NCBI GenBank assembly: GCA_903856085.1
Contig: CAIOAT010000016.1
Location: forward strand, 8,581-72,580
Direction of reading: 5' to 3'
From: Candidatus Omnitrophota bacterium
GTDB lineage: Bacteria > Omnitrophota > Omnitrophia > Omnitrophales > Aquincolibacteriaceae
Length of the DNA stretch: 64,000 nt
The notes under the pieces are model-generated. The model made no database searches. It was not told the origin of the DNA and saw only the letters and a list, made by a program, of their open reading frames with translations. Shown in pieces: positions 4,777-48,827 of the stretch. The position numbers and the translations under genes are program-made. The first letter of the stretch is position 1, and each line of letters opens with the position of its first letter.

Positions 4777-4840
4777 AAGAATCCTCCGATCGTCTAAAGC
4801 CTTTTTACTTCTTTGAATGTTCCTGCCGCAAAACAGAGGT

Positions 4841-5537: not shown

Positions 5538-5598
5538 TAGAAATGCGAGACTTGGGTCAGAATAAAGAATAAAACAAGCTTGCGAAAGGGGATCAACC

Positions 5599-5832: not shown

Positions 5833-5901
5833 CCCTAATCCAAAAAGATCGCGAATCTTGCCTCTTATTTTGAACTTCACGGAACGTTCGGGGATCTGTG
5901 A

Positions 5902-9231: not shown

Positions 9232-9385
9232 AAATGATTCCTTTCCTGGACTCAAGATCTACCCAGAATCATTATCGACGATCAACATGATGGGAGTGTT
9301 TGGCGGAGGAAAATTCCGTGTAAAATCATTTTGAAACGACGTAATCAGCTCTGGGGAAACAGGTTAAAGAAACCCTGCCGAACGC

Positions 9386-11455: not shown

Positions 11456-11467
11456 AGTTTTGAAACT

Positions 11468-25985: not shown

Positions 25986-26096
25986 TTTTTGCCCTTTTCC
26001 AATGGTGGAAGACAACTCTTTAAGGTTTTATAAAAGTTTTTCCTTCTGATCTCACGGAAAGCTTAACTTCGTTGTGAAAACTCTGCATCACATCCC

Positions 26097-32350: not shown

Positions 32351-33505
32351 TTACTTACGCTCTTCGTGCGGAATGTAATACTGTTCCTGCGGACCGATGT
32401 ATTCAGCGAGCGGCCGTATAAGACGGTTGTCCAACTGCTGCTCGATGATGTGACCACTCCAGCCAGCGACGCGACTTGCCGCAAAAACAGTTGTGAAAAA
32501 ATCCGGAGGGAATCCGAGCACATAAAGCACGGGGGCTGAGAAAAAATCCACATTGCAGGGGATCTTTTTTCTTTCCATCATCACTTTCTCGACATGCGTC
32601 CCGATCTCCAACCAGTCCATTTTTCCCGCTTTGATGCATAGGTCATGCGCGATCTGGCGAAACGCTTCGGCGCGCGGGTCGCGGGTCTTATAAATCCGGT
32701 GCCCGAAACCCATAACCTTCTTTTTCTCGTCCAAGAGTTTATTCACATAAGCAACCGCGTTCGCAGGCGTTCCGATCTCCAGGATCATTTCCATCGCATA
32801 CTGGTTCGCCGCGCCGTGGAGTTCGCCGGCTAAGGTCCCGACCGCGGAAGTGACCGCCGAATAAAGGTTCGACAAAGTCCCCGTCGTGACACGCGCCGCA
32901 AAAGTCGAGGCATTGAGCCCGTGGTCCGCCAGGAGGATCAGGTACGCGTCTAGCGCCTTCTCCATTTCCGGCGTCGGTTTCTTGCCGCTCATCATATAAA
33001 GAAAATTCGCCGCGTGGGAAAGGCTCATGTCAGGCTGAAGGGGCTCTTTGCCTTCGCGAAGCCTGTGAAAAGCCGCAATAATGGTCGGAAAAACACCCGT
33101 CAGATGATAGGCCTTCCGCTGGGATTCCTCGGGATTGACGATGTGGGCCCTGGGATCCAGACTCCCCATGAGCGAACACATGGTTCGGAGAGCGCTCATA
33201 GGATGGGTGGTGGTCGGAATAAGCCTGAGAACCGCAAGCGCCAGCTCGGAGAGAGGTCTCTGCGCCTTCAAAGTTTCTTTGAAAGTCTTGAGTTCTTCCG
33301 TGTTGGGAAGTTTCGCGTACCAAAGATGATAGGTCACTTCTTCAAAATGGGATTTTTCAACAAGCTCGCTGATCGGAATGCCGCGATAAAAAAGCCGTCC
33401 GTTCTCACCATCCACATCACTTAGAGACGTCTGAGCGGCGACGACGCCTTCCAAGCCCTTGATCAGTTTTGATGCGCTTGAAGGTTCCTTTTTCCTGTTG
33501 GGCAT
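32351..33505 (-). CDS. gltA: Citrate synthase
   Basis: 384 aa with LILLADHGLNASTFAARV, GELHGAANQ and GFGHRIYKTRDPRA. Confidence 0.9.
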   Translation of the reverse strand: MPNRKKEPSSASKLIKGLEGVVAAQTSLSDVDGENGRLFYRGIPISELVEKSHFEEVTYHLWYAKLPNTEELKTFKETLKAQRPLSELALAVLRLIPTTTHPMSALRTMCSLMGSLDPRAHIVNPEESQRKAYHLTGVFPTIIAAFHRLREGKEPLQPDMSLSHAANFLYMMSGKKPTPEMEKALDAYLILLADHGLNASTFAARVTTGTLSNLYSAVTSAVGTLAGELHGAANQYAMEMILEIGTPANAVAYVNKLLDEKKKVMGFGHRIYKTRDPRAEAFRQIAHDLCIKAGKMDWLEIGTHVEKVMMERKKIPCNVDFFSAPVLYVLGFPPDFFTTVFAASRVAGWSGHIIEQQLDNRLIRPLAEYIGPQEQYYIPHEERK

Positions 33506-33647: not shown

Positions 33648-34346
33648 TTAGACGGGTTTTGTGATCTTCCAAAGCCGGATCAGAAATATCCGGCGAGGAT
33701 CAATCAGCCGGTCGACGAGAAGCTGCGCATCCCTTTCAAAGAATGCTCTGGCATCCGGGTCCGCGAAATCCTTCATTCTTAGTTTCAGGGAAGAAAATAA
33801 AAAATTGGTCTTATAAGACACGATCCCGAGCCTCCTCACCCGTTCCTCAAAATAGCGAACGTTGATGTCCTTTTCATCCGGCGAATCGGTCTTTTCAAAA
33901 GCAATGATGAAAAAGGCTTCGCGAAAAAACCCGGTGTTTTCCTTATAAATCGTTTCTCCAGGCTTGTCAAAATAAACGGAGGCGGGCATGCTCAAGTAGC
34001 GGGAACCGTCCTGTTCGTGCAAGATCTTATAAAGCGTCACGCGCATCCCCGGCAAAGGCGCCGACAGTTCGAGCCGAAGATCCTCCCCTTCGCGCGCTCC
34101 GAGGGCATAAACCTGGATGCGTTCATCACCATGCGCCCGGTTATTCCTTTCAACCAACAACCGCAACGGCCGGGTGCCAAAGCCCGATAAATCCTGAATC
34201 GTCAGAGCTATCGGTTTGCCGTTCAAATAAAACTTGGGCAATGGGGGGACGCCCTCTTCCGCCCTGAGCGGGCTCGAGAACAAGCCGGATTGAGAAAGAA
34301 GGAATGCTACCGCGAATACGATTAAAACGCGTCTCATTGGTTTCAT
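33648..34346 (-). CDS. Secreted hypothetical protein
   Basis: Signal peptide MKPMRRVLIVFAVAFLLSQSGLFSSPLRA starts from ATG 34346 (alternatives 34358 and 34337). The long track ORF start at 34535 would overlap the upstream gene. Confidence 0.5.
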   Translation of the reverse strand: MKPMRRVLIVFAVAFLLSQSGLFSSPLRAEEGVPPLPKFYLNGKPIALTIQDLSGFGTRPLRLLVERNNRAHGDERIQVYALGAREGEDLRLELSAPLPGMRVTLYKILHEQDGSRYLSMPASVYFDKPGETIYKENTGFFREAFFIIAFEKTDSPDEKDINVRYFEERVRRLGIVSYKTNFLFSSLKLRMKDFADPDARAFFERDAQLLVDRLIDPRRIFLIRLWKITKPV

Positions 34347-34351
34347 TTTTG

Positions 34352-34642
34352 TCAGCATTTCTGCCAAAATTTTGGTATAAAAAACGGCGTCTTTTTTTTG
34401 TAATCGCAATAGGCATCCCCGAAGCGTTGCTTGAGCTCTTTTTCCTCGATAAGCTTGATCTCGAGAATGAGAAGGATCATCAGGATAACAGCTCCCTTTT
34501 CCCCGAGTCCTAAAATCCAGACTAGCACTGGCCATCCAGCGATAAAAAGTATCACGCCAAGCACCGTTGCCACCGTCCTGTAGCCCGCGGAGTATTCCTG
34601 GCCCACCCTCGCTACCAAATATCCGATTAATTGATCGAACAT
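34352..34642 (-). CDS. Short ICMT/PEMT-like membrane methyltransferase fragment (96 aa)
   Basis: The C-terminal block EEKELKQRFGDAYCDYKKKTPFFIP is typical of the isoprenylcysteine carboxyl methyltransferase family. Only about 2 TM helices are present, with no clear RHPxY block. It may be a truncated or minimal form. Confidence 0.4.
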   Translation of the reverse strand: MFDQLIGYLVARVGQEYSAGYRTVATVLGVILFIAGWPVLVWILGLGEKGAVILMILLILEIKLIEEKELKQRFGDAYCDYKKKTPFFIPKFWQKC

Positions 34643-34713
34643 AAATTCCTCCTCATTTCAAAAACCACCGGACCAGCGCCAATAATGACCGCTCTTTTTT
34701 TGCTCAGAGCGGC

Positions 34714-36279
34714 CTATCCCCCTCCGTCATCGACCTTGATATGCTGCTCCCGAACAAGCTGTCCCCGATTGTTAAAAGCCATGAGAACACCCCTCTTGGC
34801 CCCTGTCCGCTTTAGAAATTTCAGAGCGTCCAGCTTACTCTTCCAGAGAGCGATATTCCTATGGGCGTAAAAAACAATCTGAGGGAGGATCAACGCGCCC
34901 GGACGCTCCGGCTTGAGGAAGATCACCTCTCCTTTATCCGCCACCCGGGCGATCTCTTTGCCGACGGCCTCGAAGTTCCCCGCGACAATATCTTTATTGG
35001 CTTCTAAATAGCCGCCTACGGACAATACCGTCATGAAACAAAAGCAGAGAATCAATCCCCCCGTTCTTAAAACTTGAGAAAGGCCCGAACCCCATTTTTG
35101 AAAAAAATAACCATCGATCTTCGAATAGATCAGGCCTGTAAGAAGCGCTATCAAAAAGCCGGTTTTCAGAACCGAGAAATCATGGAGAGTCGTGAAATCC
35201 CATAAAACCAGGTGGTGCATAAGAACGGGCCAAAGACACAAGAAAAGCAGGATTCTTTCAAGCCTTCCGTTTCGGCTCTCCTCCACAAAACATTTTTTGA
35301 TGAAATAAATATATATTAGATTTATAAAGAACCCCCCATAACCCAGAATATAATAATTCGTGATGGCCTGCCATGCCGTCAGATCCCAGATGTTTTGTCC
35401 TGGATGAATTTTTTGAAAAACCCCAGATCTCTCAAGATATTTTTCAGACAATGTCCGCATCAAGCTCTGAACCCCGGCTATCTGGGAATAGTGCCAAAGG
35501 AGCAGCGCAAGCGCGACCAACGAAGAAACGCTCACGACTCCAAAAACAATCCTCATCGATCTTTTTCGGAAATTGAATAGGCAATAAATGAGCAGCGTTA
35601 AAGAAAAGAATGCCCCGAGCCACTCAGTAAAAATCATCAAAAAGACCGAAAGCCCAAGAAGTGCATAGTAAATGCCTTTGTGAGACGCGGTCATCAATCT
35701 CAAAAAGACATAGACCCCGGCGATAAAGAACACCTGGACAAACATTTCGCTGAAATAAACATTGGAGTGGTTCCATAATGCGACGGGTGAGAATAAATAG
35801 ACGGCAAGTCCCATCAAGGCCGGAATGTTCGAACGGCCCCGGCAATTTTTCCGGGTCAATGCGGAAACGATCAGGTAGACAAGCAGACAGCAGGAAAAAT
35901 GTACCGCCAATCCAAAGATCTGGAGGGCTGTGACATCGGGGTAAACGTGGAGGGCCTTAAAGATTAAATAGGGGACCATGTGGGCAAGCGGCCCGTAGCT
36001 CACATAATAATAATTCCCCTCCTGATCTTTGATCCGTCCTTGATTTTTAATGTTTTTATCATTTGGATTGTCATAGGTCATGATCGGTAAAAATTTATGG
36101 TTTAAAGCGCCGCCCTCATACCAGATCTGCTGAATGCGGAGAGTGTGTGCCGTCAAGTACTCATGCCCCTCTCCCAGGGGCCTGCTCATATAAGACAATC
36201 GGATGCCAGTACTTAAAGCGAACAATGCGACAATAATCAGCGCGCTCTTCAACTGATGGGATGCCAAGCTGCTACGCAA
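34714..36279 (-). CDS. Polytopic membrane protein, GT-C/ArnT(GT39)-like glycosyltransferase candidate
   Basis: 521 aa with about 11 hydrophobic helices and then a ~100-aa soluble C-terminal domain. The N-terminus is SALIIVALFALSTGIRLSYMSRPLGEGHEYLTAHTLR. It lies next to other glycan genes. Confidence 0.4.
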   Translation of the reverse strand: MRSSLASHQLKSALIIVALFALSTGIRLSYMSRPLGEGHEYLTAHTLRIQQIWYEGGALNHKFLPIMTYDNPNDKNIKNQGRIKDQEGNYYYVSYGPLAHMVPYLIFKALHVYPDVTALQIFGLAVHFSCCLLVYLIVSALTRKNCRGRSNIPALMGLAVYLFSPVALWNHSNVYFSEMFVQVFFIAGVYVFLRLMTASHKGIYYALLGLSVFLMIFTEWLGAFFSLTLLIYCLFNFRKRSMRIVFGVVSVSSLVALALLLWHYSQIAGVQSLMRTLSEKYLERSGVFQKIHPGQNIWDLTAWQAITNYYILGYGGFFINLIYIYFIKKCFVEESRNGRLERILLFLCLWPVLMHHLVLWDFTTLHDFSVLKTGFLIALLTGLIYSKIDGYFFQKWGSGLSQVLRTGGLILCFCFMTVLSVGGYLEANKDIVAGNFEAVGKEIARVADKGEVIFLKPERPGALILPQIVFYAHRNIALWKSKLDALKFLKRTGAKRGVLMAFNNRGQLVREQHIKVDDGGG

Positions 36280-36392
36280 CGCTCTTCCTCCCTTTTGTTA
36301 GACACCCAGGACTGCCTTGCAACCGATTTTGCGGGTTCGCAGTACTGCTGAAGTCTTTATTTTTATTCAGAGGATCGAGGAACATTTTTCTA

Positions 36393-36575
36393 TTATCTTT
36401 GTTTTCTCTTCCAATGTTTGCAGCCTTTTTCCACCAAGGTGGGAGGAATGCCCTTATTCGGACCTTTCCCGTGAGCCTCGAACCAAACGCAAACACCCAG
36501 AAAAGAATCCCCGAGGTCCCTGCGAAAGTCACAATCCCAGCAAGCGGTCATCACTGCCTTTTTTGAATCAGTCAT
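36393..36575 (-). CDS. Small Cys-rich protein (60 aa), hypothetical
   Basis: A strong SD (AAGGAG) lies 7 nt upstream of ATG 36575. The pattern C-W-D-C ... G-V-C ... C-K-H-W suggests a 4-Cys metal site. Confidence 0.45.
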   Translation of the reverse strand: MTDSKKAVMTACWDCDFRRDLGDSFLGVCVWFEAHGKGPNKGIPPTLVEKGCKHWKRKQR

Positions 36576-36663
36576 TTTGCAACTCCTTATTTTCTACTGT
36601 CCGGCCGTTGACCGCTCCTGCGTTCGATGAGAAGCGCAAAAGCCGCGCCCCTCTAACAACAAT

Positions 36664-37884
36664 TTACCCCTTCATTTCCAAAGCCTTATACTTATGCCAA
36701 ATAGCTTTTTCTTTGCGCTCGGAAAGAACGGTTTTCTCAAAACCCAAGTCAGGAAACCATTCCTTGCCGAAAGCTGAATAATACTCAAAGAGCCTCTGCT
36801 TCACCCACTCATCACTTCGATGTGTTATTCCCAGCTTAACTTCCAGATCACGATATAAAAAATAAGCTGCGAGCATATTGGCGTATTCATTCCAATGGCC
36901 TTCATGTTGGAATCTCAAACGGGACGGGGGAAAAAGGTGGGAACCGCTAAAGAGTTTGTAAAGATTAAGAGAGTCGATCCCCTCAGGGATTAAAGACTCG
37001 TCCTTCCCTTCGGTATGAAAAGGAAGAAGAACAACAGAAAATCGAGCGTTCTGAGCAGCCGCCCGCTTCGACCATGCCTGAAGTATCGTTTGATAGACTT
37101 TGATGGTCTGATCAACTTCAGGGGAAGGTTTTCCTGATAAATGATCGTTTTGAAAACGCTTGACCGCTGACGAATGGCGCTCTTTGTGAAAATGTTTTTT
37201 GGGCTGCAGATTAAGCCAAGAAACGAATTTTGTTTTGGCGTCTAAAAATAAGTAGGTTATGTAAAACCTAGAAACGACTCTGTTCCAAAAGGAAGAACCT
37301 TTCTTTTTTCGGGGAAAAATTAAGTGTCCCTCTCTATCCACGGAAATCAGCTTGTTTTCATAAATATTCATAAGATCATTGTCGCAATAAACATAAAACA
37401 CAAACTGCAGACCCCTGGCCACGGGCCGCTCAAGAAAGGACAAATAGGCATCATCCGTTCCATAACCATTCATCCCAAAATTAATTACTTCAAACTTGTC
37501 TTTGTTACTGTTAAGCAAATAATCGAGAACATTCACAAAGCCGTATTCGATGCTCAAGCCCGTATTTTCCACGAAAGAATCCCCGAAGAAACCGATGCGG
37601 AGCCGGCGAGCACTGGACGCCCGATCAACATCCCAACTCTGTCGCAAACCGAGATTATTATAAACCGCTAAATGCTGCTTCCCTGTATCCGGATGCTTTC
37701 GAAGAGAGCGGGTATTGGGAACCCGCTTAAGAAAATCCTCACGCGTTAATCTAGACTCAGCAGCTTCCTGGTATTTTGGAAGAAAGATTCTAAGACCTAT
37801 CTCTGCGATCATCAGCGAAATGAATACCGCGCCCAATACCAAAAGACCCTTTTGGATAAATTCTTTTGTATTTTGTTTCAGCAT
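36664..37884 (-). CDS. SGNH/GDSL-family hydrolase or acyltransferase with N-terminal membrane anchor
   Basis: N-terminal TM helix LLVLGAVFISLMIAEIGL, GDS block IGFFGDSFVENTG and a late block HEGHWNEYANML. It is adjacent to an MBOAT remnant, an AlgI/AlgJ-like pairing. Confidence 0.6.
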   Translation of the reverse strand: MLKQNTKEFIQKGLLVLGAVFISLMIAEIGLRIFLPKYQEAAESRLTREDFLKRVPNTRSLRKHPDTGKQHLAVYNNLGLRQSWDVDRASSARRLRIGFFGDSFVENTGLSIEYGFVNVLDYLLNSNKDKFEVINFGMNGYGTDDAYLSFLERPVARGLQFVFYVYCDNDLMNIYENKLISVDREGHLIFPRKKKGSSFWNRVVSRFYITYLFLDAKTKFVSWLNLQPKKHFHKERHSSAVKRFQNDHLSGKPSPEVDQTIKVYQTILQAWSKRAAAQNARFSVVLLPFHTEGKDESLIPEGIDSLNLYKLFSGSHLFPPSRLRFQHEGHWNEYANMLAAYFLYRDLEVKLGITHRSDEWVKQRLFEYYSAFGKEWFPDLGFEKTVLSERKEKAIWHKYKALEMKG

Positions 37885-37992
37885 GATTTCAACACATCCT
37901 TAGGCGCTTGGAAAATCCTAGGTTCGCTAGAACAAACGAAAGAAAATGGACGCGATAACAACAACGGTCGGCCCCGACAACGGAAAGTGACA

Positions 37993-38630
37993 TTATTTAA
38001 TCAGCCCCGCATCATAAATCGCTTCTGCCAAAAGCGCTGAATGGATTTCCCTTCCCCGCCTATTGTTGTGCATCTTATCACTGTAGAGCAACCCGTCATT
38101 TAATTCTTCAAACTGATTCATGTCCAGAACCCTCACCCCTTTCAGCCGAACATAGTTTGTAAATTCATTATAGGTAGGCATTCCTTTTCAGGCTCGATTT
38201 CGCCCCGATAGACATCCACCACACAACTTATCGCTTGAAAGGTATGAAAAGACATCCCGATAGGAAGAATAATGGATAGATGAAGGCTGTCGACACTGAC
38301 ATGCAACGGGCTGAGAAGCGCGTTTAAGCTGCCTAGGAAAAAACCAAAGTATTTGAAAAATCCAAGAATAACCAAGTTGACGCTTATGCTTAGAATAAGA
38401 AGTGCTTTTCTATATTTTGGATCCTTCGACCGAGTGATGGCCTTGGCCGAGAAAAAATCTATAGAGGTCGAAGAAAGGATGAGAAAAAGAAATCTCCAAT
38501 TCCAGCTACCATAAAAAAACAGGCTAGCCACCAGAAGGATGCGATTCTGTGTGTTTTTTGGAGAAATCCAATAGAGGGATGTTACGACGAACAAAAAAGC
38601 GATGTATTGCCAAGAGTTAAAAAGGATCAT
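37993..38630 (-). pseudogene. Deletion remnant: MBOAT (AlgI/DltB-like) N-terminal 150 aa joined out of frame to the C-terminal ~60 aa of an SGNH-type protein
   Basis: ORF 38142-38630 has the MBOAT start (MILFNSWQYIAFLFVV...FYGSWNWRF...VVDVYRGEIEPEK) but stops at 162 aa, against about 470 expected. Overlapping ORF 37993-38181 carries a DxxH-type SGNH end (YSDKMHNNRRGREIHSALLAEAI). Confidence 0.55.
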
Positions 38631-38640
38631 TTTTTGGATT

Positions 38641-41580
38641 TTATCTTACGCAAATGGATCGAAAAAGTTCCTTATATTTACCCCCGATAGCACTGATACC
38701 ATACTCGCCAAGGATTTTATCGCGATCGCAAAGACCGACCTGCTGGCGCACCTTGACATCTCTGAGCGCGAGGAGGGCCTCGACCCATTCATCAACGGTC
38801 CTGGCCAAATAGGCATTCCTCCGGTGATCGATCAGTTTTTCATACGAAGGGATAGGAGAACATACCATCGGAATCCCAAGCGACTTGAACAGGGTGAACC
38901 GATTGGTCGATTTCCCGAGATGCTGTGAAGAGTCCATATTAAACGGAACGACCGCTATATCGCTGGCAAGAATTTCTTTCCACACAGCCTTCAGGTCCCA
39001 TTTGACGGCCTTATCGTTTTTTGTGATCGCGGTCAGACGATAATTTTTCAACGCGGGAGTCCGCAGGGCTTTCTCAACAAGCGTAAGGTTCGTTAAACTA
39101 TCGGGGTTCCCAACACAAATAATGCGAATATCCGTCTTTTCGACGTTCACGTCATAATGCTTACACAGACTGGGAGGTGTTTCGATGGCATCATCAATCA
39201 CGCTAACACGTAAAGGATCTATGCCGCAGATAATCAGCTCTTCCGCCAAACGTTCAGAAACGACCACCAGGTGATCATAGGTTTCCGACATCCTTAATTC
39301 ATCCTTACTCCTCGGGAGATCGGCCAATAACAAGACCGTCTTGATGCCCTTTGCCCTGCACTTTTTAGAAAGACTGGGAGCGCCCCCCCAATAGACTTTC
39401 TGAAAAATTAGAATATCCAACCCGGAATGAAGGATAATCCAACGGAAGAACCTTGAGAGCAACAACCGGGGGGAATAGACCAAAGGCTTATAAAGAATGA
39501 CCGAATGCCACCCTTCGCCTTTCAAATAGGAATGGATGTTGATGCCCTGAATGCGACTGCTGGCATTGTTCTCATCGCCAAAAAGTACCCACCCAACGGA
39601 CGGTCGTTTAGCGGAAAAAAATCGCTTTAAAAAAAAAGCTCCTAGATTCCCTATTTTAAAAGTTCCTGATGGAAATCGAAATTTCTTTTTGGCCTCTTTT
39701 TTCATCAGGGTATTTCCAAGGGTTTTGGAACGAAAATAAGAGGGGCGATTCACGTCCCGATGGTTAACCCACTTGAAGTAAGGGTTGATCCTATAGTTTC
39801 CGGGAATCACTGCACATTTCACACGGTTCCTATAAAGAACGGGGGTTAAACTGACCTGGTCCCGCCAGCTATTTTCTTGAAACTCTCGCCACCAATCCTC
39901 CATGGCCTTGATAACAACGCTTTCGTGATGCTTCCGCAAAAGAATAGCGCCGGCAAACAAACCATTTCCGGCAGGATACCGCTCCGCTTGATACTTTTCG
40001 ATCTGTTTCTGAATGATCGCGACATCATCGAGCTCACTTTGAATGCATTTATCCGCTTCTTGGTAAATGCAATTCCTTTCCGGATGCTGAAAGCAAGCCA
40101 TGTCATCATTCGCCAGGTTTTCAGTTAAAAACCTGGATATGCTTCCAATGGGATGATAGGTGGCATCTACCCAAATGCTTTGCTCGTGGTGCGGGAAGAG
40201 CTTATGCGGGTTCATTTTGTAATAACGGGAGGTCAGAATCGGATTATCGTCGATCAGGCCGACTTTTCTGATCTGCCACGCCGGAGAAAAAGGAATGTCC
40301 TTATTTGTAAAACACACATAATCCACATCCGCCTCAAGCGCCAGCGCGGAGGGAGCTTTGAGTGTATCGGTCCCCCCGAAGATTGCCGTATAAACCACGA
40401 TCTTCCTTTGCCGCTTCGAGTTTCTCTGCCACGCATACCACAAGGAGGCCAGGAGATCACTGAGAGGATTCAGGCTAGCCTTCCTCGGGAGACGGCGCCA
40501 TAAACGCCCCTCCTTCCATCCGCTATTCCTCCAGTGCCTTATTGCGGCCTTCTCATCCTTGACCCCTTTTTCCAAAAGATCCGGATACTTGGCGAGATAG
40601 TATTCCCAATCAAAATCAGCTGGCGTTTTCTGTATCACCCAGCCCACTTTGTAGCTCCGACATTCTTTTTTCCCATAAATGACCCAATGACGCTTGGCCG
40701 CCGCTTCGGTCACGATGCCGGCACGCGAAAGATCCGGATGCTTGGCAAGATAATATTTCCAATCAAAATCCAAAGGGACATCCGAAAAAGACACCTGCCC
40801 CACCGACCTGCTCGGCACATTCCTCCGACAGGACTTCACGGCATCCTTCACTCGTGGAACATACTTCAGCATTTCCGTATCTTCTACCGCATTCGAGGGA
40901 AGATTCCTCATGGACCAAACCTCTTTCAGTTTTTTCAACCGGATGTCCGCCATTTTCCCCATCGAATCGCCCCGGTCTACACGCCCCATAAAAGTTTGAT
41001 AAGAGCGGGCAAAATAATGATTCACATGAGCTTTTTCAGAACTCACCCACTGCGTCTCTCCGGAAACACGGAATTGATGAGGAGACGGGATATCGATAAC
41101 TTTGGCAGGCCTGACAATCGCCTTCGTTTGGTTGAACCATTTTTCCGTGACCGCATCGTGATCAGCTCGCCTCGTAAGCTTTTCTAATATGAACTCGGGA
41201 TCTTGGATATGCCCATTATTCCCAAAAACGCGCCAATTCAGCATAATTTGCGAGTACGGCTCATAGTTTTTCAAGAAAGCCTTAACATCGTCATGCTCTT
41301 TTAAAACGATAAATTCATCGCCATCCACGAAGGCCATCCATTCGCACTGTCTGAATTCCTGGCAAAGGTGACGATACGCCTTAATTTGCAACGGCTGTCC
41401 CTTGCTATCAGGCCAATTGATGACGGTCACGTAATCCAAATGGCCGAAGATCTTGCGCAAAGGTAAAGCCGGATCGTTGTCGCACAAAAAGAAATGATCG
41501 AACCCGATCATCCTGTGATAAGCCAACCACTCCCTGACAAAGCGATCCTCTTCCTTCAACATCGCCGCTAAAGCAATCAT
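38641..41580 (-). CDS. Multi-domain glycosyltransferase (GT92/GT2-like + two PDL-repeats + DUF616-like + C-terminal GT-B-like), 979 aa
   Basis: N-terminus: FVREWLAYHRMIGFDHFFLCDND...FVDGDEF. Middle: KIVVYTAIFGGTDTLK...CFTNKD...LTSRYYKMNPHKLFP...WVDA (DUF616-like). C-terminus: HLVVVSERLAEELIICGIDPLRVSVIDD. There is a 4-nt start/stop overlap with the sulfotransferase gene. Confidence 0.65.
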   Translation of the reverse strand: MIALAAMLKEEDRFVREWLAYHRMIGFDHFFLCDNDPALPLRKIFGHLDYVTVINWPDSKGQPLQIKAYRHLCQEFRQCEWMAFVDGDEFIVLKEHDDVKAFLKNYEPYSQIMLNWRVFGNNGHIQDPEFILEKLTRRADHDAVTEKWFNQTKAIVRPAKVIDIPSPHQFRVSGETQWVSSEKAHVNHYFARSYQTFMGRVDRGDSMGKMADIRLKKLKEVWSMRNLPSNAVEDTEMLKYVPRVKDAVKSCRRNVPSRSVGQVSFSDVPLDFDWKYYLAKHPDLSRAGIVTEAAAKRHWVIYGKKECRSYKVGWVIQKTPADFDWEYYLAKYPDLLEKGVKDEKAAIRHWRNSGWKEGRLWRRLPRKASLNPLSDLLASLWYAWQRNSKRQRKIVVYTAIFGGTDTLKAPSALALEADVDYVCFTNKDIPFSPAWQIRKVGLIDDNPILTSRYYKMNPHKLFPHHEQSIWVDATYHPIGSISRFLTENLANDDMACFQHPERNCIYQEADKCIQSELDDVAIIQKQIEKYQAERYPAGNGLFAGAILLRKHHESVVIKAMEDWWREFQENSWRDQVSLTPVLYRNRVKCAVIPGNYRINPYFKWVNHRDVNRPSYFRSKTLGNTLMKKEAKKKFRFPSGTFKIGNLGAFFLKRFFSAKRPSVGWVLFGDENNASSRIQGINIHSYLKGEGWHSVILYKPLVYSPRLLLSRFFRWIILHSGLDILIFQKVYWGGAPSLSKKCRAKGIKTVLLLADLPRSKDELRMSETYDHLVVVSERLAEELIICGIDPLRVSVIDDAIETPPSLCKHYDVNVEKTDIRIICVGNPDSLTNLTLVEKALRTPALKNYRLTAITKNDKAVKWDLKAVWKEILASDIAVVPFNMDSSQHLGKSTNRFTLFKSLGIPMVCSPIPSYEKLIDHRRNAYLARTVDEWVEALLALRDVKVRQQVGLCDRDKILGEYGISAIGGKYKELFRSICVR
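40498..40770 (-). repeat. Tandem ~40-aa protein repeat inside the glycosyltransferase
   Basis: DFDWKYYLAKHPDLSRAGIVTEAAAKRHWVIYGKKECRSY (aa 271-310) and DFDWEYYLAKYPDLLEKGVKDEKAAIRHWRNSGWKEGRLW (aa 322-361). Confidence 0.8.
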
Positions 41581-42218
41581 GAGCCATATTCCTTCGTGGT
41601 TTTCCGAAGGATCGTATCCGGTTTTATATATTTTGTATAAAGCGGTATGCCCGACTTTGGGAGTCCTAAAAAAGATAGAATGCGAACCTGGATATCCTGA
41701 TCCAGGATGGAGATGCTTCTCCCCGGATGCACAAAATCCTCATAATGCAACTCCAGATGAGGGACCCCTTTCAACACTTCTTTGTATTTCACCTGCTCTT
41801 GTTCGATAGAGCGCGCCAGATCCTCTAGGCCCGACAGATCGGGAATTCCTCCTTGAGGCAAAGTTTCGCCTTCATAATAATGAGCCCGATACTGTTTTCT
41901 AAGAACCTTTTTGTCCGCTTGTACCTGCAATCGACTTTGGGCAACGGCCTTCGGGTCTCTCAATAAATGGATGATCTTCTGTTGCAAGAGAGTCCCCCCC
42001 AAGCTTTCCATGGTAAGAACTTGGTTGTACATCAGTATCCCCATATTTAATTTTCCGGGGATGTTCTCCGTGATTGTTCCCGTTCTTTCATACCGGAGGA
42101 ACGCCTCTCCTCGGACATGGATCTGGGGGTGCTGCTCGAAAAAGGATGCCAACAAATGCGTCCCGCTTCTTTGCGTGCTAAAGATCAAAACCTGCGGAAT
42201 AATATCCTTCATTTCCAT
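41577..42218 (-). CDS. Sulfotransferase-family protein
   Basis: 213 aa. A PAPS-binding 5'-PSB-like loop (IFSTQRSGTHLLASFF) and a later block IHLLRDPKAVAQS. The stop overlaps the downstream GT start (ATGA). Confidence 0.65.
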   Translation of the reverse strand: MEMKDIIPQVLIFSTQRSGTHLLASFFEQHPQIHVRGEAFLRYERTGTITENIPGKLNMGILMYNQVLTMESLGGTLLQQKIIHLLRDPKAVAQSRLQVQADKKVLRKQYRAHYYEGETLPQGGIPDLSGLEDLARSIEQEQVKYKEVLKGVPHLELHYEDFVHPGRSISILDQDIQVRILSFLGLPKSGIPLYTKYIKPDTILRKTTKEYGS

Positions 42219-42317
42219 AACCCCTCACTCTCACTCCCTAAAAAACATTAACTCTCTTAGAACATTAAAAAATTTCCGCGATACGTTTTGAGATACGGGT
42301 TCTCTTAATATCCTTGC

Positions 42318-43067
42318 CTAGATTATGAACTGCTGCTCCGTATTTAAGAATGAATCGAAACAGCGCGGGATCGCCGAAGTAAATTTTACAAGCTCTTCCG
42401 TCCAAGGATGACGAAATTGTAATCGGGATGCATGCAAAAGAAGACGTTCGGCCTTCACGATGGGCCGCATCTCCTCCAGCCATCCCTCGTGGATGTAACG
42501 TTCGAAGATCCGCGGATCAATGTAGATCTTGTCGCCCACGATGGGATGTCCCAAAAAGGAGAGGTGTGCGCGAATCTGATGCGTGCGGCCTGTCCGCGGC
42601 ATCACCTTTAAAAGCGAATACTCTCCTGCGTTGCTTAAAACCTGATAATCCGTTTGGGCCTTCTCTCCGTGGGGATCTGATGTGCGGATATTGTGACCAC
42701 TTTGAATGTCGAGCCCAAGCGATTCCGAGATCGTCCCCTCTTGAGCCTTAGGCGCTCCAAAGACAATAGCGTGATATTCTTTCGTCACCTGTCTGTTTTC
42801 AAAAAGGATCCCGAGCTTCCCGGCCGCCAGGGCCGATTTCGCAACCAGCACGATCCCGCTTGTCTCCGAATCAAGCCGGTTCACGATCCGGAGTCCCTCG
42901 GAACCCGAACCTACGTCCCGGATCAAAAGACTCAGCAGGTTTTTTTCCTTGAAGCGCCCCACGGGATGGACCGGAAGCGGGGCCGGCTTATCCACCACGA
43001 GAAAAAACTCATCCTCGTAAAGGATCTTGTAGTCTGTCTCCACATAAAGATCTTCTTCGGCGCGCAT
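42318..43067 (-). CDS. RluA-family pseudouridine synthase
   Basis: Blocks VDKPAPLPVHP, the catalytic NRLDSETSGIVLVAK and GRTHQIRAHL. ATG 43067 is preferred over GTG 43082. Confidence 0.85.
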   Translation of the reverse strand: MRAEEDLYVETDYKILYEDEFFLVVDKPAPLPVHPVGRFKEKNLLSLLIRDVGSGSEGLRIVNRLDSETSGIVLVAKSALAAGKLGILFENRQVTKEYHAIVFGAPKAQEGTISESLGLDIQSGHNIRTSDPHGEKAQTDYQVLSNAGEYSLLKVMPRTGRTHQIRAHLSFLGHPIVGDKIYIDPRIFERYIHEGWLEEMRPIVKAERLLLHASRLQFRHPWTEELVKFTSAIPRCFDSFLNTEQQFII

Positions 43068-43138
43068 GGAACAACCTTCCACTTTTTATAAAAAAAGTTT
43101 GCTTGATTGCCGCCCACTGGCTTTTTGCAGGATTCTCA

Positions 43139-45829
43139 TTATTTCAATAACTGTCGCAGGACGTAGTGCAGGATACCGCTATGGCGGTAGTATTCGATTT
43201 CGACGGGAGTGTCAATGCGGCAAACCGCTTCAAAGACCTTGGTTTTCCCCGCGCCCAAGGCCTTGACTGTGAGGATCTTGCCAGGCTTCAACCCCTTGGC
43301 GACCCCTTCGATCGCGTAGACCTCTTCACCGGTCAGTTTGAACGAAGCGGCGTTCTGACCTTGGAAGAATTGCAGCGGCAAAATACCCATCCCGATCAAA
43401 TTGCTGCGATGGATCCTTTCATAGCTTTCCGCGATCACGGCACGGACCCCTAGAAGCGCGGGACCTTTGGCTGCCCAGTCGCGCGAAGACCCGGAACCGT
43501 ATTCTTTCCCAGCAAGGATCACAAGCGGCCGGTTCTCTTCGCCATACTTCATAGCGGCGTCAAAGATCGGCATCGCCACGCTCTTTCCCTTTTCTGAAAA
43601 ATACTTCGTCATCCCACCTTCCACGCCCGGAACCAGCAAGTTTTTCAGGCGAATGTTCGCGAACGTGCCGCGCATCATCACTTCGTGATTACCGCGCCGC
43701 GCTCCGTAAGAATTAAAATCCTTGGGTTCGATCCCCTGTTCAATCAGATATTTCCCGGCAGGACTCGCCGGCGCGATGGAGCCCGCAGGAGAAATATGGT
43801 CGGTCGTGATCGAATCCCCGAGCACGGCCAACACGCGGGCGTTCTTGATATCCTTAAGGTCGGAGGGGAAAGCCGGCATTCTCTTGAAATAGGGCGGAGA
43901 TTTTACATAAAGAGACTTTTTATCCCAAACGAAGGTGTCGCCCCCTGGAGCGTTCAACGCGCGCCATGACTCGTTCCCCTCAAAAACATTTTTATAGCGA
44001 TTTCTGAACATCGACGGGTCCACACTCTTCAAAGCTTCCCGGATCTCCGCGGAGCTTGGCCAGATATCCCGCAGATAAACGGGTTTACCGTTTTTTCCGA
44101 GTCCAAGAGGATCCTTTTCAAGGTCGATCATGACGGTTCCCGCGATCGCGTAGGCAACGACCAGCGGCGGAGACGCGAGATAATTCGCGCGAACCTGCGA
44201 ATGTACCCGCCCTTCGAAATTCCGGTTCCCGGAAAGAACAGACGCCACGACCAGGTCTTTTTCCTTGATCGCTTTGGACACGGGTTCCGGCAATGGCCCC
44301 GAGTTCCCAATACATGTCATGCATCCATACCCCACAAGATTGAATTTCAACACTTCAAGGCAGGACAGAAGTCCGCTTGCCGCAAGATAATCCGTCACGA
44401 CCTGAGAGCCGGGCGCAAGACTCGTTTTTACCCAGGGCTTCACGGTCAGACCTTTTTGAAGCGCTTTTTTTGCGAGGATCCCGGCCGCCAGCATCACGGA
44501 AGGGCTGGAGGTGTTAGTGCAACTTGTGATAGACGCGATCACGACTGCCCCTTGCTGTAAGTCGCATTTTTCGCCCGCGATCTCGATTACGGCTTTTTTC
44601 GCAAGATCGGCCTTGTTTTTCACCGTCTCCGCGAGGGCCTTCTTGAAGGAAAGCTTTACTTCCTTGAGCGCGACTCGGTCTTGAGGCCGCTTCGGGCCGG
44701 CAAGGCTCGGAACTACGCTGGCAAGATCGAGCTCCAGAGTTTCGGAATAAACGATTTTTTCCTCCCCGCCTTCGCGGAAAAGGCCCTGCTCTTTCAGATA
44801 AGTTTCTGCGAGCTTGATCTGCTCCTCACTCCTTCCGGTCAGCCTGAGAAAATATAGCGTTTCCTGGTCGACCGGGAAAAATCCGGCCGTAGCGCCGTAC
44901 TCGGGAGCCATATTCGCGACCACCGCTCGGTCCGCGAGCGATAATTCGCTGACACCGTGTCCAAAAAATTCCACGAATTTTCCGACCACACCCTTTTTAC
45001 GAAGCATTTGTGTTGCAGTCAGCACCAAGTCTGTGGCCGTCACACCTTCGGATAATTTTCCGGAGAACTTAAAACCCACCACCTCAGGGATCAACATGGA
45101 GATCGGCTGACCAAGCATCGCGGCCTCCGCCTCAATCCCTCCAACCCCCCAGCCCAGCACCCCGAGACCGTTGATCATGGTGGTGTGTGAGTCCGTTCCG
45201 ACCAGCGTATCCGGATAAAGGAAGGTCTTCCCACCTTCTTTTCTGCTGAAGATCACGGGGGAAAGGTATTCAAGGTTCACTTGGTGGATGATCCCCGTAG
45301 CGGGAGGGACGACGCGGAAATTATGGAAAGCCTGCTGGCCCCATTTGAGGAATTGATAGCGTTCCTGATTGCGCTCGAATTCTTTCGCGATATTTTTCGC
45401 GAAGGCCTCGGAGGTCCCCGAAAAATCCGTTTGCACCGAGTGGTCGATGACGAGATCCACGGGCTGAAGCGGATTGATCTTCTTGGGATCGCCGCCCATC
45501 TTGACCATGGCTTCACGCATGGCCGCAAGATCCACAACCGCCGGAACGCCTGTAAAATCTTGCAACAAAACACGCGCCGGCGTGAAAGCGATCTCGTGCT
45601 CGCCTTTCCGCGTCGGGTCCCAGGTCGCAAGCCTCTCGATGTCTTTCCGCGTGACGTTCTTGCCGTCTTCATTGCGAAGCAGGTTCTCAAGAAGCACCCG
45701 TATGGAATAGGGAAGCTTCAGGACCTTGGCAATGCCGCATTCCTGAAGCGCGCGCAGCCGGTAGATCGTGTAGTCCTTGCCCGCAATCTTGAGCGTGACC
45801 TTACTTCCAAAGCTGTTCAAAAGACTCAT
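43139..45829 (-). CDS. acnA: Aconitate hydratase A
   Basis: 896 aa with blocks typical of AcnA/IRP-type aconitases: [65 protein letters not shown] and [16 protein letters not shown]. Confidence 0.95.
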
Positions 45830-46236
45830 CAGCGAATCCCTTTTTCATTCAGAAACGCGCTATATTCCTTGTCGACAGTTAAGATGTGATGACTGAGCCA
45901 GCTCATCAAGAAATGCACTATATCGATAGAAAGCGTTGTCTTGTCTTTTTCAAGATCTCGTTGAAAAATCGCGACCTTGGACCTGAAGACTTCGTGTTCT
46001 TTTTTGTGCTGTTCGTAGCCGGGGAAATAATACTCACTCAGAAGCAGTTCTTCCGCGTCAAAGTGCCCCGTGGCATAGCGAGCAAGCTCCCACACATCCA
46101 CACCGAGGGCCTCTCGATCGTCTTTTTTTCCCATTCTGTCAAAAATATTCCCAAAAATCTCGAAAAGCCTTTTATGCTGTTCGTCGATCATCTTGATATT
46201 CACGCTGTATTTTTCTTCCCAGATGATATGCGGCAC
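45829..46236 (-). CDS. Hemerythrin-like (bacteriohemerythrin) protein 1
   Basis: From GTG 46236, with a G-rich SD 5 nt upstream, the protein reads [28 protein letters not shown]...HFDAEELLL...HKKEHEVF...[13 protein letters not shown]. The stop overlaps the acnA ATG (TGATG). The track start at 46326 would overlap paralog 2. Confidence 0.8.
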
Positions 46237-46253
46237 GACACCCCCCCGTCTTA

Positions 46254-46661
46254 TTAGAAAACCCCGCGTGCGTTCAGGAAAGGGGCGTATTTTTTGTCCG
46301 CTTTCATCACATGCTCTGCGATCCAATGTGTCATGAACTGGACGACGTCACCGGTAAGCGTCTCCCTGCCTTCCTGAAAATTCTTCTGAAACCCCAGGAT
46401 CTTGTTACGAAAGACCTCGTGCTCCTTATGATGTTCTCCGAACTCTGGATAGTGATGCTTGATCATCAGCTGCTCTTCGGCATCGAAGTGATAGCCTGCA
46501 TACGCGACTAATTCCCGCAAGATCTCGGAAAGCGCGCTTTGCGGACGCCCCGCTTCGATGGCTTCAAAGAGCATGTCGAGCATAGCCGTGAACTTTTGAT
46601 GTTGCTGGTCAATCTCAGCAATATGAACGCTGTAGGTCTCGTCCCAAATAATGTCTAACAC
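46254..46661 (-). CDS. Hemerythrin-like (bacteriohemerythrin) protein 2
   Basis: GTG start with SD GGAGG 5 nt upstream. The sequence is MLDIIWDETYSVHIAEIDQQHQKF...HFDAEEQLM...HHKEHEVF...WIAEHVMKADKKY, a tandem paralog of 45829-46236. Confidence 0.85.
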   Translation of the reverse strand: MLDIIWDETYSVHIAEIDQQHQKFTAMLDMLFEAIEAGRPQSALSEILRELVAYAGYHFDAEEQLMIKHHYPEFGEHHKEHEVFRNKILGFQKNFQEGRETLTGDVVQFMTHWIAEHVMKADKKYAPFLNARGVF

Positions 46662-46726
46662 AAAACCTCCGCGGAAAACGTTTCTCGGGGAACGAAAAAC
46701 AGAAAAGGTTTTTCGCTCATTTACCG

Positions 46727-47824
46727 TTAACGGCCGCCCGTAACCCGCAGCTTTCTAATGATCGCCTCGCCCATTTCCCGGGTCCCAACAGCCGTGGGAT
46801 CGTTGCGGTCTTCTTTTAGATCGTAAGTCACATCTTTGCCTTCACGGATCACATCAGCCACAGCTTTTTCTAAACGCTTCGCGGCCTCGTTCTCTCCGAG
46901 ATGCTGAAGCATCAGAACACCCGAGAGGATCATCGCGACGGGATTCACTTTATTGAGTCCTTTATACTTCGGGGCAGAACCATGGGTCGCTTCGAAAAGA
47001 GCGCCATTCATTCCGATGTTGGCACCGGGTGCCACGCCCAGCCCGCCGACAAGTCCCGCGCAAAGATCCGAGAGAATATCGCCATACAGGTTCGGAAGGA
47101 CCAGCACGTCATAAAGCTCGGGCTTTTGCACAAGCTGCATGCACATATTATCCACGATGCGGTCCTCGAATTGGATGTCGGGATACTTTTTCGCCACTTC
47201 GCGCGCAACCTCGAGGAAAAGCCCGTCTGAGAATTTCATGATATTGGCCTTATGGACGGCCGTAACTTTTTTCCGTTTGTACTTCCGCGCATAATCGAAC
47301 GCGAATTTTACAATGCGTTCGCTTCCGGTCACAGAGATCGGCTTGATGCTCACGCCGGAATCCGGGCGGATTTTTTTTTGGGAAAGTCTTTCGATGTGAG
47401 CGATCAATTCCGTCACCTCGGGCGTCCCTTTCTGGAACTCAATGCCGGCATAAAGGTCTTCGGTGTTCTCACGCACAATCACAAGATCGATATGCTTGTA
47501 GCGGGAACGGACGCCGTCGTAGGATTTGCAGGGCCGGAGACATGCGTAAAGATCGAGCTCCTTACGAAGCGCCACATTCACAGAACGAAATCCTGTGCCA
47601 ACGGGTGTCGTCAGAGGGGCTTTGATGGCGACCTTGTTCTTGCGAATGGACTCCAAGACACGCTCCGGGAGCGGCGTTCCTTCGCTTGCCATAACATCCA
47701 TTCCGGCGGTCTGGATGTCCCAGTCAAATGGAACGCCTGTAGCTTCAAGACACGCCTTGGTTGCTTCCGCCAGTTCAGGTCCGACTCCGTCGCCGGGAAT
47801 AAGTGTCACGCGATAGGATTTCAT
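46727..47824 (-). CDS. icd: Isocitrate dehydrogenase (NAD-IDH/isopropylmalate-dehydrogenase family)
   Basis: 365 aa with [42 protein letters not shown] and [10 protein letters not shown]. It is upstream of the hemerythrin-hemerythrin-acnA string. Confidence 0.8.
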
Positions 47825-47936
47825 GAAATTCCTCGTTTTTTAGGGTTTTCGCGTTCCCGTGAGAACGCTGCGGTCCAAAACGCCTCCGGCTATCCTTGTC
47901 TATGCTTTGATTTCTAAATAGTGACAAGGACAGCCC

Positions 47937-47959
47937 CAATTTCAACTTCGTTGAAATTG
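47937..47959. promoter_or_regulatory. Perfect 10-bp inverted repeat (CAATTTCAAC-ttc-GTTGAAATTG) in the icd/suhB divergent region
   Basis: Read directly from the sequence. A second 7-bp inverted repeat, CCTTGTC (47894-47900) / GACAAGG (47923-47929), lies just upstream. Confidence 0.5.
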
Positions 47960-48026
47960 ATAGGTATTGGGACTAGAATGCTTCGTTCCAAAAAGACCAG
48001 CCTCATCAAAAGAGTCCATATTTTAT

Positions 48027-48827
48027 ATGAAGAACACTAAAATTAAAAGAACGCTCTTGGATGCCCTTGCGACGGCCGGAAAGATCATCCGTTCGAATTT
48101 CGGCAAGGAACAGACGATCACAAAAAAAGGCCGGTTCAACCTTGTAACCGAGATCGATAAAGCCTCGGAAAAAGCCGTGGTCGGGCTTATTTTGAAACGT
48201 TTTCCGGATCATTCGATCCTGGCCGAGGAATCCCCTGCCATACTGGGCTCCGAATACCGCTGGATCATCGATCCAATCGACGGCACCACGAACTTCGCGC
48301 ACGGCTTCCCGATCGTTTCAGTCTCGATCGGGCTGGAGAGGGATGGCCGACTTGAAATGGGCGGCGTTTTCGATCCCTTTCGTAAGGAGCTTTTTTTCGC
48401 TGAGCGCAGCCAAGGTGCAACCCTGAACGGCAAGCGCATCCATGTCTCCAAAGCAAAAACCCTCGAGGACTCGCTCCTTGCGACCGGTTTCCCCTACGAT
48501 CGCAACATAAAGCCGGATGATTATCTCGGAATGCTCCGCGTCTTTCTGCCCCGGATCCAGGGCATACGCCGCGGCGGATCTGCAGCGATCGATCTTTGCT
48601 ACGTAGCCTGCGGCCGTTTTGACGGTTATTATGAAATGAAACTCGCGCCGTGGGACAAGGCGGCAGGCATGATGATCGTCGAGGAAGCAGGCGGAAGGCT
48701 TACGGATTTTTCAGGAGCTTCTTTAACTCTTGAGGGATTGCAGAATCTCGCCACCAATGGTTTGATTCATGCCGAAATGCTGGCGGCCCTTGAACCGTTC
48801 AAACATCTGGGGCGATCTTTTTCTTAG
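48027..48827 (+). CDS. suhB: Inositol monophosphatase family protein (SuhB-like)
   Basis: Blocks LAEESP, WIIDPIDGTTNFAHG and GSAAIDLCYVACGRFDGYYE. ATG 48027 is preferred over the TTG at 47967. Confidence 0.8.
   Translation: MKNTKIKRTLLDALATAGKIIRSNFGKEQTITKKGRFNLVTEIDKASEKAVVGLILKRFPDHSILAEESPAILGSEYRWIIDPIDGTTNFAHGFPIVSVSIGLERDGRLEMGGVFDPFRKELFFAERSQGATLNGKRIHVSKAKTLEDSLLATGFPYDRNIKPDDYLGMLRVFLPRIQGIRRGGSAAIDLCYVACGRFDGYYEMKLAPWDKAAGMMIVEEAGGRLTDFSGASLTLEGLQNLATNGLIHAEMLAALEPFKHLGRSFS

Follow-up and report, generated by a model that had tools for sequence, protein, structure and literature searches.

Tandem bacteriohemerythrin genes joined to the aconitase gene in a tricarboxylic acid cycle gene cluster of the Omnitrophota family Aquincolibacteriaceae

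We analysed a 64,000-nucleotide (64-kb) stretch of DNA from a Candidatus Omnitrophota bacterium (assembly GCA_903856085.1, contig CAIOAT010000016.1, positions 8,581 to 72,580; this whole stretch is called the window below), in which two adjacent hemerythrin genes, here termed Hr1 and Hr2, lie directly upstream of acnA, the gene for aconitate hydratase A. The minus-strand gene order is icd-Hr1-Hr2-acnA-rluD, where icd denotes an isocitrate dehydrogenase-like gene and rluD an RluA/RluD-type pseudouridine synthase gene, and a suhB-like inositol monophosphatase gene stands divergent and upstream of icd (Table 1). The gaps are 65 nt between icd and Hr1, 17 nt between Hr1 and Hr2, and -1 nt between Hr2 and acnA, so that the last base of the Hr2 stop codon is also the first base of the acnA start codon. 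An earlier note on this DNA, made from its letters alone, had placed the hemerythrins between icd and acnA and had pointed to this stop/start overlap, and both observations agree with our coordinates. The position of the RluA/RluD-type gene is kept in many relatives, and the transcription unit may end with it.

Table 1. Coordinates of the hemerythrin-aconitase locus in the window
Feature	Position	Strand	Details
icd-like isocitrate/isopropylmalate dehydrogenase family gene, first of cluster	46727..47824	-	365 aa; PF00180 358 bits
Shine-Dalgarno sequence of Hr1, GGAGG	46666..46670	-	4 nt 5' of GTG (46661-46659); read from sequence
Hr1, type-A bacteriohemerythrin	46254..46661	-	135 aa, GTG start, TAA stop; NF033749 131.5 bits
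Seven-G run, Shine-Dalgarno-like, of Hr2	46241..46247	-	4 nt 5' of GTG (46236-46234); read from sequence
Hr2, type-B bacteriohemerythrin	45829..46236	-	135 aa, GTG start, TGA stop; NF033749 122.5 bits
TGATG, Hr2 stop/acnA start overlap by one base	45827..45831	-	TGA 45831-45829, ATG 45829-45827
acnA, aconitate hydratase A	43139..45829	-	896 aa; TIGR01341 1384 bits; PF00330 + PF00694
RluA/RluD-type pseudouridine synthase gene	42318..43082	-	PF00849 114 bits; about 70 nt 3' of acnA

The same note had described tandem hemerythrins of 135 and 136 amino acids with GTG starts behind Shine-Dalgarno sequences. The tandem paralogues and the GTG starts, each with its Shine-Dalgarno or Shine-Dalgarno-like site 4 nt upstream (GGAGG for Hr1 and the seven-G run for Hr2), are as it said; the length of 136 included the stop codon, and both proteins have 135 residues, as independent gene callers likewise report for public contigs with identical sequence. 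We considered a longer, 165-residue Hr2 beginning at TTG and rejected it, since the gene callers and all orthologues agree on 135 residues from the GTG position. Because the GTG codons of Hr1 and Hr2 sit at the orthologous start position, we take them to be the real starts. The start codon itself was discarded as a special feature, given that most orthologues have ATG at the same codon (the HrB gene of locus L135 also has GTG). At the 3' end of Hr2, the sequence AAAAAGGGA (45835-45845, minus strand) encodes a conserved C-terminal N-x-K-G-(I/V)-x motif and places a Shine-Dalgarno-like AAGGG about 10 nt 5' of the acnA ATG; this motif is also kept in hemerythrins unlinked to acnA and is therefore no adaptation to coupling.

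Consensus scans found no promoter-like site in the icd-Hr1 or Hr1-Hr2 gaps, and the only terminator-like site between icd, Hr1, Hr2, and acnA was a weak stem of 5 bp within the coding part of Hr1. The absence of a convincing terminator or promoter between these genes weakly favours a single transcript. A search of window positions 42000 to 48300 recovered no Rfam RNA element at E <= 1.

Hr1 and Hr2 are canonical single-domain bacteriohemerythrins and ancient paralogues of two types, A and B. Both are well matched by the NCBIfam bacteriohemerythrin model NF033749 (cutoff 84 bits; scores in Table 1) and by TIGR02481 (117.9 bits for Hr1 and 106.4 for Hr2; cutoff 51.75), and PF01814 is the sole Pfam domain in each (62.5 bits, E = 7e-17, for Hr1 and 50 bits, E = 5e-13, for Hr2; cutoff 25.3). 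The two proteins share 40% identity over 134 residues (E = 4e-39), and orthologues of Hr1 show 67 to 84% identity. All seven di-iron ligands (H21, H58, E62, H77, H81, H117, and D122) are present in both, in the pattern H...HxxxE...HxxxH...HxxxxD, when aligned on the ligand positions of the Desulfovibrio vulgaris DcrH hemerythrin domain (DcrH-Hr) and the Methylococcus capsulatus hemerythrin (McHr), and the seven ligand columns are invariant in alignments of 19 and of 27 relatives. The hemerythrin identity claimed in the earlier note, which was to fall if the His/Glu/Asp ligands were lacking, is thus supported by a full set in each protein.

The closest solved relatives of Hr1 and Hr2 are DcrH-Hr (PDB 2AVK/2AWC; E about 1e-15 to 1e-16) and McHr (PDB 4XPX), which have the same length and the same seven aligned ligands but only 25 to 29% identity, and neither of which is linked to aconitase or tricarboxylic acid (TCA) cycle genes: DcrH-Hr belongs to a chemotaxis receptor, as its sensor domain, and McHr reportedly carries O2 to particulate methane monooxygenase (pMMO). 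Leu114 of McHr, the position of the tunnel mutants in PDB entries 4XPW, 4XPY, and 4XQ1, aligns with an Ile of Hr1 and with a Leu of Hr2. An AlphaFold2 model of Hr2, a prediction and not a solved structure, is a four-helix bundle (helices at residues 15-34, 41-68, 74-96, and 104-131) with a predicted local distance difference test score (pLDDT) of 88.2 and a predicted template modelling score (pTM) of 0.81, and a Foldseek search against the PDB matched it to 2AVK (DcrH-Hr) and 4XPY (McHr) with template modelling (TM) scores of 0.85 to 0.88 and root mean square deviations of 1.4 to 1.9 Å. From these features Hr1 and Hr2 are predicted to be oxygen-binding di-iron proteins.

A likeness to the RIC/YtfE family, which the earlier note had proposed, did not survive comparison. 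The RIC/YtfE/ScdA family consists of hemerythrin-like proteins with a di-iron site that return activity to aconitase and fumarase; its members are induced by nitric oxide (NO), have about 220 amino acids, and consist of two domains, an ScdA_N domain that carries a DfCCgG motif in most members and a hemerythrin-like domain with one labile iron and with four His and two bridging Glu as ligands (H84, H129, E133, H160, H204, and E208 in YtfE) (PMC9268430). Hr1 and Hr2, in contrast, are single-domain proteins with a ligand set of five His, one Glu, and one Asp. Pfam found no ScdA_N domain in either, and 135 residues leave no room for a second domain; their NCBIfam matches at E <= 0.01 include no RIC model, and no YtfE chain is among the Foldseek PDB matches of the Hr2 model at E <= 0.001. 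We therefore rejected membership in this family, none of whose tested features the two proteins possess. The buffering of NO, which the earlier note had also suggested, gained no support here.

The same comparison bears on whether the hemerythrins might repair aconitase in the manner of RIC proteins, by donating iron that rebuilds the [4Fe-4S] cluster from an oxidised or nitrosylated [3Fe-4S] form. A di-iron protein made beside an enzyme that loses one labile iron would be a natural candidate donor, and RIC proteins provide a precedent with aconitase itself, but the failure of Hr1 and Hr2 on the second domain, the profiles, the ligand set, and the structural matches speaks against such a role. 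So does the behaviour of Campylobacter jejuni HerA, the nearest tested relative in function, which neither accelerated the recovery of iron-sulfur (Fe-S) enzymes nor repaired them in vitro (PMC4257069). We consider RIC-like repair improbable; failed family membership taken by itself still leaves iron donation conceivable.

The neighbouring enzymes differ in how firmly they can be named. AcnA is an aconitate hydratase A of full length, with 1384.4 bits to TIGR01341 (cutoff 945), and its three cluster-binding cysteines are visible in the translation (SITSCTNTS and GCMTCIGN). The best NCBIfam matches of the icd product are isocitrate dehydrogenases, all under their equivalog cutoffs, and the protein in fact falls under the curated cutoff of every isocitrate, homoisocitrate, and isopropylmalate dehydrogenase equivalog (the top match is PRK08997, at 406 against 510 bits); because all equivalog scores are below cutoff, its substrate assignment draws on the context of acnA, the malate dehydrogenase gene mdh, and the citrate synthase gene gltA. 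The 64-kb window contains no further hemerythrin, and a search of it for oxidase or oxidative-stress genes recovered no oxidase among the 34 open reading frames (ORFs) scanned.

An identical acnA is also present on contigs from lake metagenomes (up to about 380 kb), and its close relatives are found in metagenome-assembled genomes labelled Candidatus Omnitrophota. Among these, fen_1321 (locus L015) and RIFOXYB12_FULL_50_7 (locus L045) encode AcnA that is 88 to 89% identical to that of the window, and the supplement of Seymour et al. (2023) places both in the Omnitrophia, Omnitrophales, Aquincolibacteriaceae (GTDB UBA2337), in the genus Aquincolibacterium; more distant loci belong to its sister genera UBA1443 and CAIJHQ01. 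Seymour et al. (2023) predict aerobic respiration from the genomes of many Aquincolibacteriaceae, and for Aquincolibacterium aerophilum they describe complex I, a cytochrome bd oxidase, and a TCA cycle that lacks succinate dehydrogenase, "suggesting a microaerophilic lifestyle." By analogy with these genome-based predictions for the genus and family, the host of the window is probably microaerophilic as well. The earlier note had spoken of an oxygen-sensitive organism, a description that gives way to one of a lineage predicted to be microaerophilic and respiratory, and not strictly oxygen-sensitive.

We surveyed the conservation of the hemerythrin-acnA adjacency from both sides. For AcnA, a scan of one genome per GTDB species yielded at least 49 loci, which were searched by tblastn with the window proteins and whose icd-acnA interval was inspected; conversely, a profile of the acnA-linked hemerythrins was run against metagenome contigs, which yielded at least 80 loci. 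Both scans were pattern-limited, non-exhaustive samples, and all counts given here are of the loci listed. The icd-acnA interval was fully visible in 23 Omnitrophota species, and the synteny of icd and acnA was kept in all 23. Eight of these carried one or more intact hemerythrins directly 5' of acnA (icd-Hr-acnA in four, icd-Hr-Hr-acnA in two, and icd-mdh-Hr-acnA in two), 14 had none (icd-acnA in seven, icd-mdh-acnA in six, and icd-mdh-orf153-acnA in one), and one, at locus L021, had a decayed remnant of 207 nt directly 5' of acnA (L021:5794-5998). The remnant keeps the N terminus up to H21 (MSQIKWDEKYSGGVEGIDQQH) and the C-terminal HHIxxxDKKY motif, with an internal deletion that joins the N terminus to about residues 82-101 and is followed by a frameshift into ...DHHIMEVDKKYGPFLNKQGIF, so that H58, E62, H77, and H81 are gone; a gene reduced by internal deletion and frameshift is direct evidence of loss by deletion. 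Outside the phylum, none of the 23 AcnA loci listed (AcnA 52 to 65% identical) had a hemerythrin in the fetched flanks.

The interval between icd and acnA also varies in ways that do not involve hemerythrins. A gene for an LDH-like malate dehydrogenase of 307 to 320 amino acids lies there at L014, L017, L020, L023, L042, L049, L050, L053, and L135 but is absent from that place in the window, and because of this the interval is best described as a variable cassette of mdh and/or hemerythrins. At L018 (4045-4506), a 153-residue predicted membrane ORF (MDIKTNDFALDEGEYFNLLF...) lies between mdh and acnA, in the slot that holds hemerythrins in other species.

In the reverse survey, all six listed hemerythrin loci that share 48% identity or more with Hr1 or Hr2 lie directly 5' of an Omnitrophota-type acnA, while the other 74 listed loci (44% identity or less) have no acnA nearby, 46 of the 74 with at least 1 kb of downstream sequence. 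Seven further homologues with 57 to 78% identity, whose contexts were looked up, all sit at the acnA junction. Two outgroup hemerythrins with 39 to 41% identity occur in unrelated contexts; the settings of bacteriohemerythrins elsewhere include a multicopper oxidase cluster (L005) and a lytic transglycosylase gene (L136). The fullest form of the locus is icd-mdh-HrA-HrB-acnA, with gltA next in one contig. Hemerythrins of this clade always stand immediately 5' of acnA, and after mdh where mdh is present; none was seen in the icd-mdh gap or at any other place in the fetched flanks, and no type A or B hemerythrin was found away from acnA among the clade loci examined. Of 17 distinct related contigs, 15 share a single base between the hemerythrin stop and the acnA start, and the other two have an 8-nt gap. 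Hr2 and acnA thus have the structure of a translationally coupled pair, with the same strand and a stop/start overlap kept across orthologous loci, in an otherwise fluid locus, where mdh, gltA, and an inserted island are present in some relatives and absent from others.

These surveys qualify the picture drawn in the earlier note, which had asked for a comparison of gene neighbourhoods and had written of a hard-wired hemerythrin-aconitase operon. The adjacency does recur in relatives but is confined, among the loci surveyed, to one family, the Aquincolibacteriaceae; "hard-wired" is too strong for an arrangement that 14 of 23 related species lack and one holds as a remnant; and the hemerythrins sit in a wider TCA operon, icd-mdh-Hr-Hr-acnA-gltA, rather than in a two-part module with aconitase.

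In a neighbour-joining tree of 91 hemerythrins, constructed without bootstrap values, all acnA-linked proteins form one clade with subclades A (Hr1-like) and B (Hr2-like), and where both types occur their order is A then B (the window and L135). There have been at least three tandem duplications at the acnA site, namely the A/B duplication and further B/B duplications at L004 and L015. Because all acnA-linked hemerythrins fall in one clade, the data point to one ancient insertion followed by duplications and losses, and the presence of hemerythrins on deep branches of the AcnA tree (L053, with mdh-A, and L021, with the remnant) indicates that the insertion is old. In the AcnA tree, species with and without hemerythrins are intermingled where AcnA is 89 to 93% identical to that of the window. 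The simplest history would be a single insertion 5' of acnA in the family ancestor, an early A/B duplication, and later duplications, together with many independent losses of hemerythrins and mdh.

The surviving hemerythrin genes are under purifying selection: the ratio of nonsynonymous to synonymous substitution rates (dN/dS) is 0.09, 0.15, and 0.30 in three pairs with unsaturated dS, only three being used because dS is saturated in most pairs. They evolve much faster than their neighbours: hemerythrins of 48 to 60% identity accompany AcnA and Icd proteins that still share about 90%. On unrelated metagenomic contigs, bacteriohemerythrin genes often stand in tandem groups of two or three, without an aconitase gene in the vicinity (L087:4545-6162, L089, L092, L094, L100, and L111), and tandem duplication is thus a general habit of the bacteriohemerythrin family.

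A linkage that arose once, in one family, and was then frequently lost speaks for a general cytoplasmic O2 buffer, store, or oxidative-stress protein that has no role specific to aconitase. The position would then be a historical accident, the ancestral gene having inserted once in a strongly expressed housekeeping operon and been kept by inheritance, and one conceivable task of the proteins would be to deliver O2 to a high-affinity oxidase or to buffer it there, as the M. capsulatus hemerythrin does for pMMO. The varied contexts of bacteriohemerythrins elsewhere (L005, L136, and the respiration, chemotaxis, and denitrification neighbourhoods of methanotrophs), the tandem arrays outside the clade (L087, L089, and L092), and the repeated duplication at the acnA site, which also suits a bulk O2 buffer, point the same way. 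Chance placement fits less well with a gene that is always found at the acnA junction and never elsewhere in the fetched flanks, with an overlap kept through 40 to 50% protein divergence, and with the failure to find any type A or B hemerythrin off acnA in the clade, and we regard a purely general role as the main rival of the reading favoured below, and as less probable than it.

We tentatively favour, with a probability of about 0.45, the interpretation that Hr1 and Hr2 are co-expressed, translationally coupled guards of aconitase against O2 and peroxide in a microaerophile, a function that we infer from the gene arrangement. Under this interpretation the hemerythrin genes would be co-transcribed with acnA and the translation of acnA would be coupled to that of hemerythrin, and co-transcription and coupling together would mean that hemerythrin and aconitase are produced together, perhaps at similar levels. 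The reduced di-iron sites would bind O2, or would be oxidised sacrificially by hydrogen peroxide (H2O2), close to AcnA, and the labile iron of its solvent-exposed [4Fe-4S] cluster would then be lost less during oxygen transients. The action would be one of damage prevention, as with HerA and HerB of C. jejuni, and not of RIC-type repair, and the module would be accessory, to be kept, duplicated, or deleted by niche. The persistent overlap with one gene, in a locus where others come and go, is what indicates acnA as the partner, and the repeated tandem duplication would fit selection for the dosage of a stoichiometric binder.

To our knowledge, stand-alone bacteriohemerythrins have been studied with Fe-S enzymes, by genetics and biochemistry, in C. 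jejuni only. Mutants in herA (Cj0241) and herB (Cj1224) lose Por and Oor activity in air, and two-hybrid evidence for direct contact between hemerythrin and client is cited in the same work (Kendall et al. 2014, PMC4257069). Prevention is favoured because HerA and HerB protect these enzymes in air without aiding recovery or repair, and because a microaerophilic life, such as C. jejuni leads, is predicted for the host lineage. HerA and HerB resemble Hr1 and Hr2 in being bacteriohemerythrins with conserved di-iron ligands, HerA being stand-alone and HerB carrying a C-terminal extension with a cysteine motif, and they guard central carbon enzymes with oxygen-labile [4Fe-4S] clusters, as we propose for Hr1 and Hr2. 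They differ in their clients, which are Por and Oor in C. jejuni and would be aconitase here, and in their gene arrangement: herA adjoins iscS/nifU and is transcribed alone, outside the operon of its clients, whereas the Hr2 stop codon overlaps the acnA start.

Several considerations weigh against a guard role. The linkage appears to be effectively a single evolutionary event, in that all acnA-linked hemerythrins form one clade, and no independent origin was found at the 23 AcnA loci of other phyla or the 74 other hemerythrin loci listed. AcnA evidently works without hemerythrins in the 14 of 23 species that lack the genes and in the one with a remnant. The physical interaction of hemerythrin with AcnA, the co-transcription, and the translational coupling are all hypothetical. 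AcnA-type aconitases are, in Escherichia coli, the more oxidation-tolerant isozyme. Finally, simple sequestration of O2 cannot outrun its diffusion (Kendall et al. 2014, PMC4257069).

Translational coupling would also favour the formation of a complex, and a specific complex of hemerythrin and AcnA could act either as an O2/H2O2 shield or as an O2/iron switch between the enzyme and an apo, RNA-binding AcnA. We hold such a complex to be a long shot; if real, it would give bacteria their first hemerythrin devoted to a single client enzyme, and a prokaryotic parallel to the animal FBXL5-IRP logic. AcnA is the bacterial homologue of IRP1. The sensor version of this idea, in which the redox or metallation state of the hemerythrins would toggle AcnA between its enzymatic and RNA-binding forms, would amount to a bacterial functional analogue of the FBXL5-hemerythrin/IRP axis, and it draws on that homology and on the hemerythrin domains of DcrH and FBXL5, which sense O2 or iron. 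Sensor hemerythrins are, however, normally fused to output domains, whereas Hr1 and Hr2 stand alone; two copies and frequent loss would be odd for a regulator, the locus holds no Rfam RNA element that the scan could detect, and RNA binding by this AcnA is proposed by analogy. FBXL5 is described as a hemerythrin-fold, iron- and oxygen-responsive protein that acts on proteins of the aconitase (IRP) family in mammals, which is the likeness, but it is a subunit of a eukaryotic E3 ligase that acts by degradation, with no operon logic and no close homology to Hr1 and Hr2, so that the likeness is conceptual. We judge a sensor role very improbable.

Other features of the window lie around this locus. 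A perfect 9-bp inverted repeat (CAATTTCAA-N5-TTGAAATTG) at 47937-47959, within the 202 bp that separate icd from the divergent suhB-like gene, is unique in the window, and exact copies occur in the same place at seven other distinct Omnitrophota loci, some with hemerythrin genes and some lacking them; the repeat overlaps a promoter-like TTGAAA-17-TAGAAT on the plus strand and is a candidate operator, of the TCA operon or of suhB, or a candidate hairpin. On the other side, a minus-strand block at 33648-42218 separates the pseudouridine synthase gene from the citrate synthase gene (32351-33505) and contains a sulfotransferase-like gene, a gene for a 979-residue protein with Glyco_transf_92 and TOD1_MUCI70 domains, and three ORFs of 295 to 521 amino acids without a Pfam match. 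In relatives, gltA lies within about 1 kb after acnA or rluD (L003 and a European Nucleotide Archive contig), and the block looks like an inserted glycosylation island. Further along the minus strand are a giant ORF of 3,911 amino acids (14280-26015), whose sole Pfam match is a NUDIX domain at residues 3461-3597, and a phosphate/polyphosphate cluster (24-13030) that comprises a Pst-type permease and binding protein, a putative porin, PPK2, PPK1, and a Ppx/GppA-HD phosphatase. A figure legend in Seymour et al. (2023) includes "big ORF" among the symbiosis-related traits of Omnitrophota.

Our literature search found no report that links bacteriohemerythrin to aconitase or to a TCA operon, or Omnitrophota to a hemerythrin so placed. 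A 2025 survey of methanotroph bacteriohemerythrin neighbourhoods names respiration, sensing, chemotaxis, and denitrification, and none that involves the TCA cycle. A bacteriohemerythrin built into a TCA operon, with its gene overlapping that for aconitase, is thus undescribed in the searchable literature, in a protein family that is itself ordinary. The value of the locus is its gene context and not new protein chemistry, as Hr1 and Hr2 are ordinary members of their family.

How Fe-S dehydratases survive pulses of oxygen in microaerophiles and in organisms of the oxycline is poorly understood, and the work on C. jejuni did not settle how bacteriohemerythrins that stand alone shield Fe-S enzymes. 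The locus described here names a client enzyme genetically, through an overlap with the acnA start that has been kept through roughly 50% protein divergence, and it turns a vague idea about hemerythrin and oxygen into a defined two-protein question, for which the closely related AcnA of species that lost their hemerythrins provide natural controls. If the guard role fails, what is left is a documented accessory gene riding in a housekeeping operon. If it holds, the locus would represent hemerythrin protection of Fe-S enzymes with the client specified genetically, a function that we infer from a single evolutionary event, in the Aquincolibacteriaceae, which are predicted to be microaerophilic or respiratory Omnitrophota of oxygen-stratified waters.

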